Source: Candidatus Moraniibacteriota bacterium
GTDB taxonomy: Bacteria; Patescibacteriota; Minisyncoccia; Moranbacterales; UBA1568
Length of the DNA: 43,209 bases
Direction: 5' to 3'
NCBI GenBank assembly: GCA_049303555.1
Contig: JBAQNF010000025.1
Location: forward strand, 1 to 43,209
Part shown: positions 4 through 5,120 of the stretch, piece after piece
How the letters are laid out: each line of letters opens with the position of its first letter
How positions within the stretch are numbered: the first letter of the stretch is position 1
The notes under the pieces: generated by a model
Databases searched by the model: none
Seen by the model: the letters and a program-made list of their open reading frames with translations, nothing else
What the model was told of the DNA's origin: nothing
Made by a program: the position numbers and the translations under genes

Positions 4-708
4 ATGAAACTTTCAGCGATTCAACGCTTTACCATTCTTGATTATCCGGACAAGGTAGCCTGTATCGCTTTCACTCCCGGATGCAACATGCGGTGTGGCT
101 TTTGCCATAACCCGGAGTTTGTCTTGCCAGAAAAAATAGAGGAGCTGCAGGATGACTTTATCGCAGAAGAAACGTTTTTCAATTTCCTCGACAAGCGACG
201 GGGACTACTTGAGGGCGTGGTGGTGTCGGGCGGCGAACCGACCATCTGGCAAGACCTGCCGGAGTTCTTCCGCAGGATTAAAGAAAAAGGATTTGCGACG
301 AAGCTTGATACCAATGGTAATCATCCGAAGATGCTCCAGAAGCTTCTGGATGAGAAACTCGTCGACTATGTGGCCATGGATGTGAAGACCTCGCTTGCTG
401 AATACTCGAAGCTCGTGGGCGGGGGAGCGAAAGCTGAAAACATTGCAGAGAGTATCAATCTTTTGAAGACTTCCGGTATTCCCTATGAATTCCGTACGAC
501 TCTTATCAAAGAAATTCATACAGAGCAAGTCTTGAAAGATATGGAAAAACTGTTGCAAGAATCGGCACGTTATTATCTCCAGGTCTTCCGGCCTGGCCAC
601 ACGCTCAACCCGGTCTTTGCTACGTATCACCCGTTTTCTTCTGACGAGATGCGGGGTCTCGTGAAGCGTTTTTCCAGCGCGGCCAAAGAAGTGGGTATCC
701 GGGGTTGA
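4..708 (+). CDS. nrdG: anaerobic ribonucleoside-triphosphate reductase activating protein (radical SAM activase)
   Basis: 234-aa ORF. The N-terminal CNMRCGFCHN fits the CxxxCxxC radical-SAM cluster motif, and VVVSGGEPT is a SAM-binding-like motif. Size is typical of NrdG/PflA-type activases. Confidence 0.8.
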   Translation: MKLSAIQRFTILDYPDKVACIAFTPGCNMRCGFCHNPEFVLPEKIEELQDDFIAEETFFNFLDKRRGLLEGVVVSGGEPTIWQDLPEFFRRIKEKGFATKLDTNGNHPKMLQKLLDEKLVDYVAMDVKTSLAEYSKLVGGGAKAENIAESINLLKTSGIPYEFRTTLIKEIHTEQVLKDMEKLLQESARYYLQVFRPGHTLNPVFATYHPFSSDEMRGLVKRFSSAAKEVGIRG

Positions 709-733
709 TTTTGGTATTTACTCCTGCTAGTAT
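705..733 (+). promoter_or_regulatory. sigma70-like promoter for the T-box leader (TTGATT-17 nt-TAGTAT)
   Basis: TTGATT at 705-710, a 17-nt spacer, then TAGTAT at 728-733. The predicted TSS near 740 falls just before the GCGAUGA K-turn motif of the leader. Confidence 0.4.
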
Positions 734-863
734 GGCCTTACAAGCGATGAAGAGGCCCCTTCCAAGGTGGACAAGGAATCATCCTCTGAGCTGCGGAAAG
801 AAATTCGCCAATTGGCGAAAGTAGAATCCGCCGGGCAAGCCCGTAATAGCTGTAATTAAGAGC

Positions 864-891
864 TTGTAGCTAGTAGGTTGTAGCTAGTAGG
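864..891 (+). repeat. perfect tandem 14-mer x2 (TTGTAGCTAGTAGG) inside the T-box leader
   Basis: 864-877 and 878-891 are identical. It is followed by the palindrome AGGGAATTCCCT. The region can fold as a Stem III-like hairpin with 897-915. Confidence 0.9.
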
Positions 892-900
892 GAATTCCCT

Positions 901-931
901 AAGAAGCTAAGAACTAAAAAGCTAAAAAGCT
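901..931 (+). repeat. 31-nt AAGAAGCT/AAGAACT/AAAAAGCT/AAAAAGCT module (family A)
   Basis: Near-identical module at 5933-5963 (AAGAAGCT AAAAACT AACCAGCT AAGAAGCT), with the same 7-8-8 nt unit spacing. Confidence 0.85.
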
Positions 932-969
932 AAAGCAAGGTGGTACCACCCTTCGAAGAAATTCAGGGT

Positions 970-1005
970 CCTTAGCACAAGTCGTGTTAAGGATTTTTTG
1001 TTTTT
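970..1005 (+). terminator. intrinsic terminator of the T-box leader
   Basis: 9-bp stem CCTTAGCAC/GTGTTAAGG (one G-U pair), 5-nt loop, then ATTTTTTGTTTTT. Confidence 0.8.
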
Positions 1006-1012
1006 ATGGTCT

Positions 1013-1519
1013 ATGGGAAAGAATATTTTTCGCGGAGAGGCTGAATCTCCCTACCATCTTTCGGTAGGAGCAGTTCTTGTGAATGAAAAGGGTGAAGTGG
1101 CCACCCACTATTTCAAAGAATTTGAAACGTTTGAAAAGGTTAAATTTTTTGATTTCTACCTTCTCATGAGAGAGACGGTTGAACCAGGGGAGTCGATAGA
1201 GGGTGCGGTGTCACGGGGTATCAAAGAAGAATTTGGTGCGACGGGAGAAATAGAAAGGTTTCTCGGAACTTTGGTAACGAAGTTTCTTCGAAGGGGAACA
1301 TGGATTGAAAAGACAACTACATATTTTTTGGTAAGCTTAGAAAGTTTTGATCTTAATTTACAGACAAAAGACGGTGAAACGAGGGTGAGTCAGGTGCAGT
1401 GGCAGTCGATTGATTTTCTCATTGAGAAGATGAAAGAACAGGGGAAAAAATATGAGAGAACAGATTTGGATGAATCGATTATACTCGAGCGAGCCAAGAA
1501 ATTTATTGAATCAAAATAA
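1013..1519 (+). CDS. NUDIX-family hydrolase with a divergent Nudix box
   Basis: RETVEPGESIEGAVSRGIKEEFGA aligns to the Nudix box GX5EX7REUXEEXGU, but the first G is replaced and RE is RG. The first in-frame ATG after the leader terminator is at 1013; the ORF track starts at a TTG at 998 inside the terminator T-run. Confidence 0.6.
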   Translation: MGKNIFRGEAESPYHLSVGAVLVNEKGEVATHYFKEFETFEKVKFFDFYLLMRETVEPGESIEGAVSRGIKEEFGATGEIERFLGTLVTKFLRRGTWIEKTTTYFLVSLESFDLNLQTKDGETRVSQVQWQSIDFLIEKMKEQGKKYERTDLDESIILERAKKFIESK

Positions 1520-1527
1520 TTAACTCT

Positions 1528-4500
1528 ATGTTCAAAAAAGTAGAATCACAGGTAAGTTTTCCGAAGATGGAGGAAGAGGTGCTTAAGTTCTGGAATGAGA
1601 ATAATATTTTCCAGAAGTCTATTGATCAGAGACCGACCGATAAGCTCTATAGCTTCTATGATGGTCCACCGTTTGCCACGGGCACGCCACACTATGGACA
1701 TATTGTGGCGAGCGCTATCAAAGATACCGTGCCTCGTTATTGGACCATGAAGGGTTATCGAGTGGAGCGCAAGTGGGGCTGGGACTGTCATGGGTTGCCG
1801 ATTGAGAACATCGCCGAGAAGGAACTAGGAATCACACACAAGAAGGAAATCGAAGAGCTTGGAGTGGCTAGGTTCAACGAGATTTGTCGTTCGAAAGTTT
1901 TGGAATACGTGGCTGAGTGGAAGAAAGTGATCAATCGTTTTGGTCGCTGGGCTGATATGGAACATCCTTACGCCACCATGGACAAGAGCTTCATGGAGAG
2001 CGTCTGGTGGGTGTTCAAAGAACTCTGGGACAAGGAACTGATTTACGAGAGCTACCGCACCATGCACATCTGTCCGCGTTGTGAGACGACCCTGTCACAG
2101 TCGGAGGTAGCAGAAGGATATAAAGATGTGAAGGATCTGGCGGTGACAGTAAAATTTGAACTGGTGGATGAACCAGGAACGTTTGTGTTGGCCTGGACGA
2201 CCACTCCATGGACACTCCCAGGCAACGTCGCTTTGGCTGTGAACGAGAATGAGAGATATGTATACTTTGAGGCGCTGAATGATTCTGACAACAATCGAAT
2301 AAAGAAGGGGGAAAAGATTGTTATGCTTGATAGTCAAGAGGTGATGATGAGAAGTTTCGAAACATTTGGAGTAAAACTATTTCGAACTTCAGAAGATCAT
2401 GACTTGGCAAAAAAAGCAGATGGAACACCATATCCCTTTGACCGAGATATCAGAAAGAAAGTTAAGCTTCAGTTATTTGTTGCTGATGGTGTTGAATACT
2501 CTTTTGTGAAGTCTGTCGATGGTGCCCAACTGGTTGGAAAATCTTACAAGCCGCTGTTTGATTACTACGCGAAGGATGAAAAATTAGAAAATCATAAAAA
2601 CGGGTGGAAAATCTATCATGCTGATTTCGTCACAATTGATAAAGGGACAGGCATCGCACACGAAGCGCCGGCCTTTGGTGAAGATGACATGCAGCTGGGC
2701 AAGGCCAACAGTCTGCCCTGGGTGCAGCATGTGAACATGGACGGCACCATGAAAGCGGAAGTGACAGCATTTGCAGGAAGAGATTTGAGTCCAAAGGCAA
2801 AAGGAAAAGCGGAAGAGGTCCGTGAGATAGATCTTGATGTCAAAAAGTATTTGAGTGAAAATGGTTTGCTCTTTGCTTCAGAAAAATATCCTCATGCGTA
2901 TCCTCATTGTTGGCGTTGCGATACGCCACTTCTCAACTACGCGACCAGCTCATGGTTCGTGAAGGTAACGGAGATCAAACCCAAGATGCTGGAACTGGCC
3001 GAGAATATTCACTGGTCACCGGAGCATATCAAAGAGGGACGTTTTGGGAAGTGGTTGGAAGGCTCCCGTGATTGGTCTATCAGTCGTCAGCGCTACTGGG
3101 CGAGTGTGATGCCGATTTGGAAGTGCGAGTGCGGTGAGATGAAAGTGTTTGGATCAGTAGTAGATCTTGAGAAAGCGAGTGGCATGAAAGTTGATGATCT
3201 TCACAAACATATCGTAGACGAAGTGACGGTGCCGTGTGAAAAATGTGGACAGACGATGCATCGAGTGCCGGACGTGCTCGATACTTGGTTTGATAGCGGC
3301 TCCATGCCCTATGCTCAGAGTCACTATCCGTTTGAGAATGAGAAGAAATTTGAGCAGACCTTTCCAGCGCACTTCATCGCTGAAGGTATCGACCAAACCC
3401 GTGCCTGGTTCTACTACCAGCACGTCATCGGGACTGCTATCAAGGGGAGTAATGCGTTCCAGAACGTGATCGTGAATGGCATTGTCCTAGCCGAAGATGG
3501 CAAGAAGATGTCCAAGCGTCTGAAGAACTATCCGGACCCGATGGAAATCTTGAATAAGTACGGAGCGGATGCGCTGCGCTACTATCTCCTCTCTTCGCCG
3601 GTGGTGGCAGCCGAGAACCTGAACTTCTCGGAGCGTGATCTGTCCGATATCGTCCGGAACGTCTTCCGTATGCTTTGGAACTCGTACTCATTCTTCACGA
3701 CCTACGCCAGCATCGATAACTGGGAGCCAAAAAAAGATGCCAAGCCGTCAGAGAATCTCTTGGATAAGTGGATTCTCTCTGAGCTGCAGCTCGTCATTAA
3801 AGAAGTAGATGGAGCTATGAGTGCCTACGAGCTGAACCGTGCCACTCGTGCCTTTGCGCCGTTTGTCGATAATCTCTCGAACTGGTACATCCGTCGCAGT
3901 CGTAAGCGTTTCTGGAAGAGCGAAGATGATATCGACAAGGAACAAGCCTATCAGACCCTCTATACTGTACTGGTTTCCCTCTCCAAGTTGATGGCGCCAT
4001 TTACACCGTTCCTCTCGGAAGAAATGTACAAGAACCTGACTGGAGAAGAATCAGTGCACCTGGCGGATTACCCGGTGGCTGATGAAGGCTTGATTGATGA
4101 GAAGTTGAATCAAGAGATGGATGAGATACGAAATATTGTTAAACAGGGATTGCAGTTACGTGCAGAAGCCGGTATCAAGGTCAGGCAACCATTGGGAGAG
4201 CTTTTCATTATGAATAAACAACCCCGCGGTGAGCTTGTTGAGATTCTTCTTGAGGAGCTTAATGTGAAAAAGGTTGTCCCTGGAGCAGATCTTGGAGAAA
4301 AGGACATTGAGTTAAGATTGGAAATTACTCCCGAATTGAAACTCGAAGGGGAGATGAGGGAAGTAGTGCGAGCTATTCAAGAGGGTCGCAAGAAAGCCGG
4401 CTTTAGGGTGGAGGATCGTATTATGCTTGGCTACGTCGGTAAAGAAGAAGTTTTCGCGAAGTTCGAAACCGAAATCGCCAAGGAGGTGCTTGCTCCAGAA

Positions 4501-4593
4501 AAGCCCGTCAAAGGAGAGCTCTCTGACGCTGAATATTCAGAAACCATCACTCTTGATGGTGCAGAATTTTCTTTCACCCTCAAACGAATATGA
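1528..4593 (+). CDS. ileS: isoleucyl-tRNA synthetase
   Basis: 1021 aa. Class I motifs PHYGH (HIGH) and KMSKRLKNYP (KMSKS). The FYDGPPFATGTPHYGH N-terminus is typical of IleRS. Confidence 0.95.
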   Translation: MFKKVESQVSFPKMEEEVLKFWNENNIFQKSIDQRPTDKLYSFYDGPPFATGTPHYGHIVASAIKDTVPRYWTMKGYRVERKWGWDCHGLPIENIAEKELGITHKKEIEELGVARFNEICRSKVLEYVAEWKKVINRFGRWADMEHPYATMDKSFMESVWWVFKELWDKELIYESYRTMHICPRCETTLSQSEVAEGYKDVKDLAVTVKFELVDEPGTFVLAWTTTPWTLPGNVALAVNENERYVYFEALNDSDNNRIKKGEKIVMLDSQEVMMRSFETFGVKLFRTSEDHDLAKKADGTPYPFDRDIRKKVKLQLFVADGVEYSFVKSVDGAQLVGKSYKPLFDYYAKDEKLENHKNGWKIYHADFVTIDKGTGIAHEAPAFGEDDMQLGKANSLPWVQHVNMDGTMKAEVTAFAGRDLSPKAKGKAEEVREIDLDVKKYLSENGLLFASEKYPHAYPHCWRCDTPLLNYATSSWFVKVTEIKPKMLELAENIHWSPEHIKEGRFGKWLEGSRDWSISRQRYWASVMPIWKCECGEMKVFGSVVDLEKASGMKVDDLHKHIVDEVTVPCEKCGQTMHRVPDVLDTWFDSGSMPYAQSHYPFENEKKFEQTFPAHFIAEGIDQTRAWFYYQHVIGTAIKGSNAFQNVIVNGIVLAEDGKKMSKRLKNYPDPMEILNKYGADALRYYLLSSPVVAAENLNFSERDLSDIVRNVFRMLWNSYSFFTTYASIDNWEPKKDAKPSENLLDKWILSELQLVIKEVDGAMSAYELNRATRAFAPFVDNLSNWYIRRSRKRFWKSEDDIDKEQAYQTLYTVLVSLSKLMAPFTPFLSEEMYKNLTGEESVHLADYPVADEGLIDEKLNQEMDEIRNIVKQGLQLRAEAGIKVRQPLGELFIMNKQPRGELVEILLEELNVKKVVPGADLGEKDIELRLEITPELKLEGEMREVVRAIQEGRKKAGFRVEDRIMLGYVGKEEVFAKFETEIAKEVLAPEKPVKGELSDAEYSETITLDGAEFSFTLKRI

Positions 4594-5120
4594 GTAAACT
4601 TATTGTTATCTGTGGGCTTCCGGGAAGTGGGAAGACTACTTTGGCGAGCGAGTTATCACGGAGATTGAATATTTTTTGTCTCCACAAGGATTCGGTTAAA
4701 GAATCACTGTTTGAATCACTGAAGCTTTCTACTTTGGAAGACAGTAAAAAAATAGGCTATCCCGCAGTTAAGGTAGCACTTGATTTAGTGGAGGAGAATA
4801 TTGGTCGCGGCATTGATGTCATTTTGGAATCGCCATTCAACTTTCCAGAGGAAGGGAAGCTTTTCGAAGAGTGGAAGGAAAAATACCACATAGATTTTTT
4901 TGCCGTTATTCTTCAGGTTGGTCCGGAAGAACGAAGACGGAGATTCGTCGAACGCGAAAGGCATCGAGCTCATCACGATACTGATCGTTTGAGAATGACG
5001 GGGAACACCCTGGAAGAGACTTGTTCTTACGATCACATCCCAGAGAAAAAACTTTTTCTCGAAACGAACAAGCCAGTCGAAGCTTTGGTTGAGAAAGTTA
5101 TGGAATTCCTTCGTTCATAA
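4590..5120 (+). CDS. P-loop NTPase / predicted kinase (AAA_33-like)
   Basis: Walker A motif GLPGSGKTT at the N-terminus; 176 aa. The start overlaps the ileS stop (ATGA), suggesting translational coupling. Confidence 0.65.
   Translation: MSKLIVICGLPGSGKTTLASELSRRLNIFCLHKDSVKESLFESLKLSTLEDSKKIGYPAVKVALDLVEENIGRGIDVILESPFNFPEEGKLFEEWKEKYHIDFFAVILQVGPEERRRRFVERERHRAHHDTDRLRMTGNTLEETCSYDHIPEKKLFLETNKPVEALVEKVMEFLRS

Follow-up and report, generated by a model that had tools for sequence, protein, structure and literature searches.

INTRODUCTION

The ileS T-boxes of Actinobacteria with an ultrashort or intermediate Stem I were reported by Sherwood et al. (2015) and are represented by the structures 6UFG and 6UFM, according to PMC7583486. 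In these leaders, the short Stem I is tied to slow, translational control (PMC7583486; PMC11297988). Reviews hold that transcriptional T-boxes generally need a Stem I platform that docks onto the tRNA elbow (PMC7583486 section 6.2; PMC11297988 introduction), and the reason given for the platform is that capture of the tRNA has to precede the arrival of the polymerase at the terminator (PMC7583486; PMC11297988). In TBDB, the short-Stem-I model was run only on Actinobacteria and on class I hits with a truncated Stem I (PMC7778990). In the library searched, we found no publication on T-boxes in the ultra-small bacteria of the Candidate Phyla Radiation (CPR), which is absence of evidence only. Here, we describe the ~300-nt spacer at positions 705-1005 of contig JBAQNF010000025.1 from a Candidatus Moraniibacteriota bacterium (assembly GCA_049303555.1); the whole stretch analyzed, 43,209 nt, is referred to as the window. 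The spacer is located between a radical-SAM (NrdG-like) gene, which ends at 708, and a NUDIX gene, as defined by open reading frames (ORFs) and Pfam. It is probably a T-box riboswitch for tRNA-Ile that controls a NUDIX-ileS-kinase operon by transcription attenuation.

In its logic, the leader follows the classical transcriptional T-boxes, and it shares its decoding half with the actinobacterial short-Stem-I class. From each class it lacks a defining feature, namely the platform of the former and the Shine-Dalgarno sequestrator of the latter. Like the ileS T-boxes of Actinobacteria (Mycobacterium, Nocardia), the leader has a K-turn, a Stem I of a few base pairs, AUC followed by A, and no elbow platform, together with a Stem II S-turn (AAGAA/AGUAGA), a IIA/B pseudoknot, a UGGUACC bulge, and ileS as a target. 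By contrast, those leaders carry UCCUCG/CGAGGAG near the start codon and no U-tract, whereas the window leader has a hairpin with a U-tract. The actinobacterial design is described for ileS leaders (PMC7583486), while CPR bacteria use theirs for Val, Asp, Asn, and Thr as well, and the window copy differs further in an extra small Stem I hairpin and a 70-nt, repeat-built Stem III. With the transcriptional T-boxes of Firmicutes (RF00230; Bacillus subtilis tyrS, ileS, and glyQS), the leader shares predicted specifier-anticodon and UGGN-NCCA pairing, an antiterminator opposed to a more stable intrinsic terminator, and an aminoacyl-tRNA synthetase operon as the target, with the K-turn, Stem II, IIA/B pseudoknot, F-box, and T-box sequence in the same order. 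Unlike them, it has no distal Stem I (AG bulge and distal loop, which form the interdigitated T-loop platform).

RESULTS

Covariance-model searches of the spacer

All elements named in an earlier reading of the sequence alone (the sequence-only reading) were present in the spacer in the canonical T-box order (Table 1), and its claim of a T-box leader was borne out by the RF00230 alignment, a second covariance model, and covariation. At the Rfam gathering threshold, a search of the whole window reported only a tRNA-Leu and nothing in the spacer. In E-value mode, RF00230 aligned the spacer over all 219 model positions with 40.7 bits (E 9.3e-8). Weak matches of other Rfam families in the spacer (rhtB, TCV_H4, and sR7; E 1-4) were dismissed as chance. 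When the whole genome (919 kb) was searched with RF00230, the leader was obtained with E 5e-8 and was the sole T-box. The low score is attributable to the missing distal Stem I: the RF00230 alignment gave 27 nt versus 76 in the Rfam model, with neither the AG bulge nor the distal loop, as the proposal of a short Stem I without a distal platform had implied. Model R1, which was built from 12 ultrashort relatives with the window left out, scored the window at 100 bits (E 4e-26).

Table 1. Elements of the leader and genes of the downstream operon, in window coordinates
Feature	Position	Strand	Details and basis
Promoter (predicted)	705-733	+	-35 TTGATT 705-710, 17-nt spacer, -10 TAGTAT 728-733; from sequence
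Stem I	743-792	+	RF00230 and R1 alignments
K-turn	743-750/788-792	+	AGCGAUGA 743-750 with GAGCU 788-792
Stem I lower helix	751-755/783-787	+
Stem I small upper hairpin	756-777	+
Specifier AUC (Ile)	778-780	+	3' side of internal loop; followed by purine A781
Stem II	793-831	+	Lower helix 793-797/827-831, upper helix 804-809/814-819
Stem IIA/B pseudoknot	832-852	+	IIA 832-834/841-843
Stem IIA hairpin	832-843	+	CGGGCAAGCCCG, then UAAUA (to 848)
F-box-like sequence	841-848	+	CCGUAAUA
Stem III	861-930	+	70-nt hairpin, both arms of 7-8 nt tandem repeats
Antiterminator	937-973	+	AAGG[UGGUACC]ACCCU...AGGGUCCUU
Intrinsic terminator (predicted)	965-1005	+	Hairpin 965-997, U-tract U6GU5 994-1005; terminator scan and fold
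NUDIX hydrolase	1013-1519	+	ATG 1013 likelier, alternative TTG 998; ORF, Pfam
ileS	1528-4593	+	1021 aa; ORF, Pfam
AAA_33/zeta-toxin-like kinase	4590-5120	+	ATG 4590; 4-nt overlap with ileS stop region

The helices of the leader are maintained by compensatory changes

Among 61 genomes from the genus and order of the window genome, 47 had similar sub-threshold RF00230 matches. From 60 related genomes, 29 leaders were fetched, and in 28 of them ileS lay within 1.5 kb downstream (tblastn with the window IleRS), directly next in most relatives and after a small gene in some. Covariation was counted on an alignment of 60 leaders (59 distinct) fitted to the model; Stem III and the upper Stem II have no common alignment register and were excluded from the count. 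Standard pairs occupied 95.0% of the cells, compared with 73.8% in shuffled controls and 31-48% when the partners were slid, and two-sided changes were observed in 26 of 28 pairs, which supports the pairing scheme in orthologous leaders.

At the foot of Stem I, the K-turn-like base noted earlier proved to contain the GA motif, with the pairs A743-U792, G744-C791, and C745-G790, a GAU bulge (746-748), and sheared G749-A789 and A750-G788. Across the 59 leaders, the K-turn pairs were paired in 95.5% and the lower-helix pairs in 99.5% of cases, all with two-sided changes, and the C-stem pairs of the K-turn covaried (for example, GC to AU). Most relatives had an ultrashort Stem I in which four base pairs close a 6-7 nt loop, NNAUCA. 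The part between the lower-helix strands measured 5-51 nt in the 60 related leaders and was in most cases a loop of 5-8 nt. Immediately 5' of AUCA, the window and leaders L004, L018, L020, L023, and L028 carried an additional small hairpin.

In Stem II, AAGAAA (798-803) faces AGUAGAA (820-826) across the S-turn internal loop, as expected from the hairpin flanked by AGUAGAA in the sequence-only reading, and AAGAA and AGUAGA were conserved in relatives. The five lower Stem II pairs were paired in 98.6% of cases, all with two-sided changes, and Stem II together with IIA folded at -21.3 kcal/mol (z -3.3). The adjoining hairpin and F-box-like motif were likewise found as predicted, within a IIA/B pseudoknot whose IIB pairs are C840-G849, G839-C850, and A838-U851. 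Four IIB pairs covaried in the relatives despite their absence from the model; the third of them, for example, was AU in 15, GC in 12, CG in 5, GU in 5, and UA in 4 leaders.

In two leaders, L031 (G030:C37) and L041, the ultrashort Stem I was separated from Stem II by an extra hairpin, and the model therefore mis-assigns Stem I there. This arrangement may be a further structural subtype.

The specifier tracks the downstream synthetase gene across the phylum

The genome encodes tRNA-Ile(GAU) with discriminator A (CCA is not encoded), which matches both the AUC specifier with its 3' purine and the UGGU of the bulge. The AUC specifier assigned in the sequence-only reading was kept in those ileS leaders whose Stem I could be aligned, with ileS downstream. 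Furthermore, of 401 genomes sampled across the phylum, R1 detected the reduced design in at least 153, which represent 121 of 319 genera and frequently carried 2-5 copies; given the strict filters, these numbers are minimum values. The expectation that a T-box in a CPR-like genome would be notable thus did not hold as far as rarity is concerned; since the design is common in the phylum, what is notable is the class, not the single copy.

Nineteen further leaders from the phylum (nine before valS, nine before aspS, and one before thrS) were checked for the specifier. At the fetched loci, the loop triplet before the 3' purine tracked the downstream gene: AUC preceded ileS, GUC preceded valS (nine leaders), both GAC and AAC preceded aspS, and ACC preceded thrS. 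Of the nine aspS genes, five belonged to the non-discriminating aspartate--tRNA(Asn) ligase type, with GAC in front of three and AAC in front of two. The bulge read UGGU for Ile and Val, UGGC in seven of the nine Asp/Asn leaders, and UGGA for Thr. This agreement of specifier, gene, and discriminator, drawn from sequence, is the strongest evidence that the loop triplet would be read by an anticodon.

Leaders with the Asn triplet AAC before aspS were L045, L053, L054, and perhaps L056; three of them had UGGC, and two of the genes were of the aspartate--tRNA(Asn) ligase type. In organisms that rely on the transamidation route, such leaders would place the enzyme that charges tRNA-Asn under induction by this tRNA in its uncharged form.

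The expression platform forms two mutually exclusive folds

The T-box sequence AAGGUGGUACCAC occupied positions 937-949. In the antiterminator, helices A1 (937-940/970-973) and A2 (948-952/965-969) enclose the 7-nt bulge UGGUACC (941-947), which was present in all aligned ileS leaders; the discriminator A of tRNA-Ile fits the earlier proposal that its UGGU would pair with an ACCA end. Helix A2 covaried, for example with ACGUU/AACGU in a relative versus ACCCU/AGGGU in the window. The antiterminator folded at -9.6 kcal/mol. The terminator hairpin, with core pairs 969-978/984-993 and loop 979-983, folded at -16.3 kcal/mol (z -5.9 versus shuffles) and is 6.7 kcal/mol more stable. Positions 969-973 belong to both folds, as part of the terminator stem and of the A1 3' strand, so that the overlap of antiterminator and terminator claimed in the sequence-only reading was confirmed by folding. 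When the hairpin was required to reach at least the stability of -6 kcal/mol, to begin in the antiterminator 3' strand, and to lead into a U-rich tail, 53 of the 59 distinct related CPR leaders had a hairpin with a U-tract, and most of the others had a short GC hairpin with a U-tract.

The same decoding module occurs in Actinomycetota with a different platform

A pattern consisting of the K-turn, a 4-bp stem, the AUCA loop, AAGAA, and AGUAGA was scanned against one genome per species and gave at least 120 matches; the counts in this paragraph refer to the matches listed. Most were from Actinomycetota (Micromonospora, Rhodococcus, Corynebacterium, Bifidobacterium, and others), and at least 10 were from CPR bacteria (Saccharibacteria, Paceibacterota, Moraniibacteriota/Moranbacteria, and an unassigned Patescibacteria bin). 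R1 matched 74 of 80 loci at the pattern site, with a further weak match in L104 away from that site within the locus, and ileS was nearby in 70 of the 80. A single motif pattern thus picked up both groups, in agreement with the likeness to actinobacterial ileS leaders seen in the sequence-only reading: the elbow platform is missing, and Stem II with the IIA/B pseudoknot would compensate. The platforms were different. A hairpin with a U-tract was found in 8 of 9 CPR loci versus about 1 of 63 others, the ninth CPR locus having a longer hairpin beyond the size limit of the terminator criterion, and the actinomycete loci carried UCCUCG...CGAGGAG sequestrators adjoining AUG, in agreement with the reviews' account of actinobacterial ileS T-boxes. 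Set against these actinomycete leaders (about 60) with the same decoding module, the assignment of a terminator rather than Shine-Dalgarno sequestration to the window leader held.

One leader of the class (L072; 67 bits), in a metagenome-assembled genome labelled Pseudobdellovibrionaceae, and thus from neither CPR bacteria nor actinomycetes, lay on a 3-kb contig and was ended by the contig edge. It may represent a mis-binned contig or a transfer.

Points against attenuation by tRNA-Ile, and alternative explanations

Several points weigh against the reading of the leader as a tRNA-Ile-responsive attenuator. The RF00230 match is significant by E-value, but its 40.7 bits lie under the curated cut-off of 93 bits, and by that measure alone the spacer would count as having no significant hit, which the sequence-only reading had named as a refuting outcome. 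Because the platform is absent, co-transcriptional sensing may be inefficient or need something unseen. In Stem I, the upper helix has two possible registers (CCUU/AAGG or UUCC/GGAA), and a second AUC (781-783) overlaps the first; this alternative register gives the same reading, and either of the two triplets may be the one read. The UGGN rule is broken by L010 (GAC) and L056 (AAC), both of which precede aspS with UGGU instead of UGGC. Finally, the sequencing runs containing the stretch were DNA metagenomes from soil and groundwater only, with no RNA runs.

The sub-threshold score, together with the tandem repeats in the spacer, would suit an explanation without any T-box, in which an nrdG terminator, a promoter, and repeat hairpins mimic T-box motifs by chance. 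That explanation is hardly credible, as it is already contradicted by the full-length RF00230 alignment (E 9e-8), by the 100 bits from R1, which was built without the window sequence, by the same element order in dozens of relatives upstream of ileS, and by the clear covariation controls. The missing platform, described as generally required for transcriptional T-boxes (PMC7583486), and the insertions in Stem I and Stem III, one of them built of tandem repeats, could instead point to a decayed or constitutive remnant, in which the platform and the tRNA response have been lost and the terminator or leader is leaky. However, specifier, UGGN base, and downstream gene change together throughout the phylum, every helix including the pseudoknot is maintained by compensatory changes, and most genomes of the genus retain the element upstream of ileS. 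Such features would not persist in a dead element, and we consider this explanation very unlikely.

An explanation that accepts tRNA-Ile sensing but lets the 3' hairpin act mainly on translation, by sequestration of the ribosome-binding site, or at both levels, is also unlikely, although less so. The type of decoding module is known from PMC7583486 only in translational T-boxes, and AAGGA (989-993) lies inside the 3' arm of the hairpin. Yet AAGGA is the mere complement of the conserved UCCUU, U6GU5 directly follows the hairpin, and the distance between start codon and hairpin varies among relatives. The in-frame ATG 1013 is 19 nt past AAGGA, which argues against Shine-Dalgarno sequestration, and no Shine-Dalgarno sequence was found within reach of this ATG. 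The frequency of the U-tract, high in CPR leaders and very low in the non-CPR loci of the same class, also favors a terminator. Transcription attenuation in response to tRNA-Ile remains the reading that we prefer.

Proposed mechanism

According to the mechanism that we propose, transcription would start near 740 from the conserved promoter. The K-turn, short Stem I, Stem II S-turn, and IIA/B pseudoknot would then display AUC to the GAU anticodon. Since the distal platform is absent, binding of the anticodon would have to depend on the latch formed by Stem II and the pseudoknot, without docking at the elbow, as in the solved actinobacterial ileS T-boxes. Pairing of the ACCA end of uncharged tRNA with UGGU in the bulge would stabilize the weak antiterminator and allow RNA polymerase to read through into the operon. 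With charged tRNA, or with none, the stronger terminator with its U6GU5 tract would form, and transcription would be expected to stop at ~1000.

Implications for the T-box class in CPR bacteria

We lean, by a little, toward the view that a class of transcription-terminating T-boxes able to dispense with the elbow platform exists throughout the CPR phylum (Patescibacteria). In this class, the tRNA would have no hold other than the latch of Stem II and the pseudoknot and the contact at its 3' end. The codon would be displayed by a hairpin loop of 5-8 nt or by a very small internal loop, and at least Ile, Val, Asp, Asn, and Thr would be served. If this is true, the rule that a short Stem I means translational and a long Stem I transcriptional control is not general, and neither is its kinetic rationale. 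The window leader and many CPR relatives join the short decoding module to a strong predicted intrinsic terminator, and this combination makes them natural test cases for the kinetic argument. More time for the capture of tRNA might be gained from enlarged inserts in Stem III or A2, for which the 70-nt repeat hairpin is an example. Judged by its sequences, the class may also offer compact tRNA-sensing parts, of ~160 nt in the smallest relatives.

Short-Stem-I T-boxes are systematically unannotated. At the Rfam 15 cut-off of 93 bits, RF00230 passed in only 2 of 14 control genomes, and 0 of the 61 related genomes had a match above it. The class is invisible at this cut-off, and therefore annotation misses one of the few recognizable regulatory RNAs of these reduced, amino-acid-dependent organisms. 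Control genomes of Corynebacterium, Thermus, and Deinococcus also had RF00230 matches, all under the 93-bit cut-off.

Promoter and Stem III

The -35 element of the putative promoter overlaps the stop codon TGA (706-708) of the upstream nrdG-like radical-SAM gene, and the last three bases of its 17-nt spacer, TGC (725-727), form an extended -10. TTGATT-N17-TAnnnT with TGn before the -10 recurred in L009, L012, L015, L019, L022, L023, and L041, at a fixed distance from the K-turn and with differing spacer sequences. This fixed distance suggests that the transcript starts about three nt before Stem I. A generic promoter scan missed the leader promoter because it scores 8/12.

Stem III folded at -25.1 kcal/mol (z -3.1). 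Tandem Repeats Finder detected repeats of period 7 (AGCTAGT) at 861-890 and of period 8 (CTAAAAAG) at 899-934, which pair mutually. In relatives, Stem III was ~20 nt or was replaced at the same position by unrelated repeat hairpins (L014, L016, L017, L020, and L025); fast-evolving repeat hairpins seem to be tolerated, or even favored, there.

The probable operon under T-box control

As stated in the sequence-only reading, NUDIX is the first gene downstream of the leader, and ileS begins 8 nt after it. ATG 1006 was rejected as the NUDIX start because it is out of frame, and with it goes a plausible Shine-Dalgarno spacing for AAGGA. A scan of 600-1700 found no terminator on the + strand besides that of the leader itself, and a promoter-like site at 1422-1451 inside the NUDIX gene was dismissed as no better than chance. 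The 8-nt gap and the 4-nt overlap suggest that the three genes are co-transcribed; given the overlap, the kinase would be translationally coupled to ileS and under T-box control. The closest named match found for the IleRS was from a Candidatus Moraniibacteriota bin (59.6% identity).

The gene between leader and ileS differed among relatives (NYN, TrpR-like, PD-(D/E)XK, 23S IVP, histidine phosphatase, or NUDIX). A functional link between NUDIX and the T-box was rejected on this ground, and NUDIX is most simply regarded as a passenger. Unrelated small genes stood between T-box and synthetase gene in L005, L008, L012, L016, L025, L028, L029, and L050, two of them without a Pfam match, and these genes would likewise fall under tRNA control.

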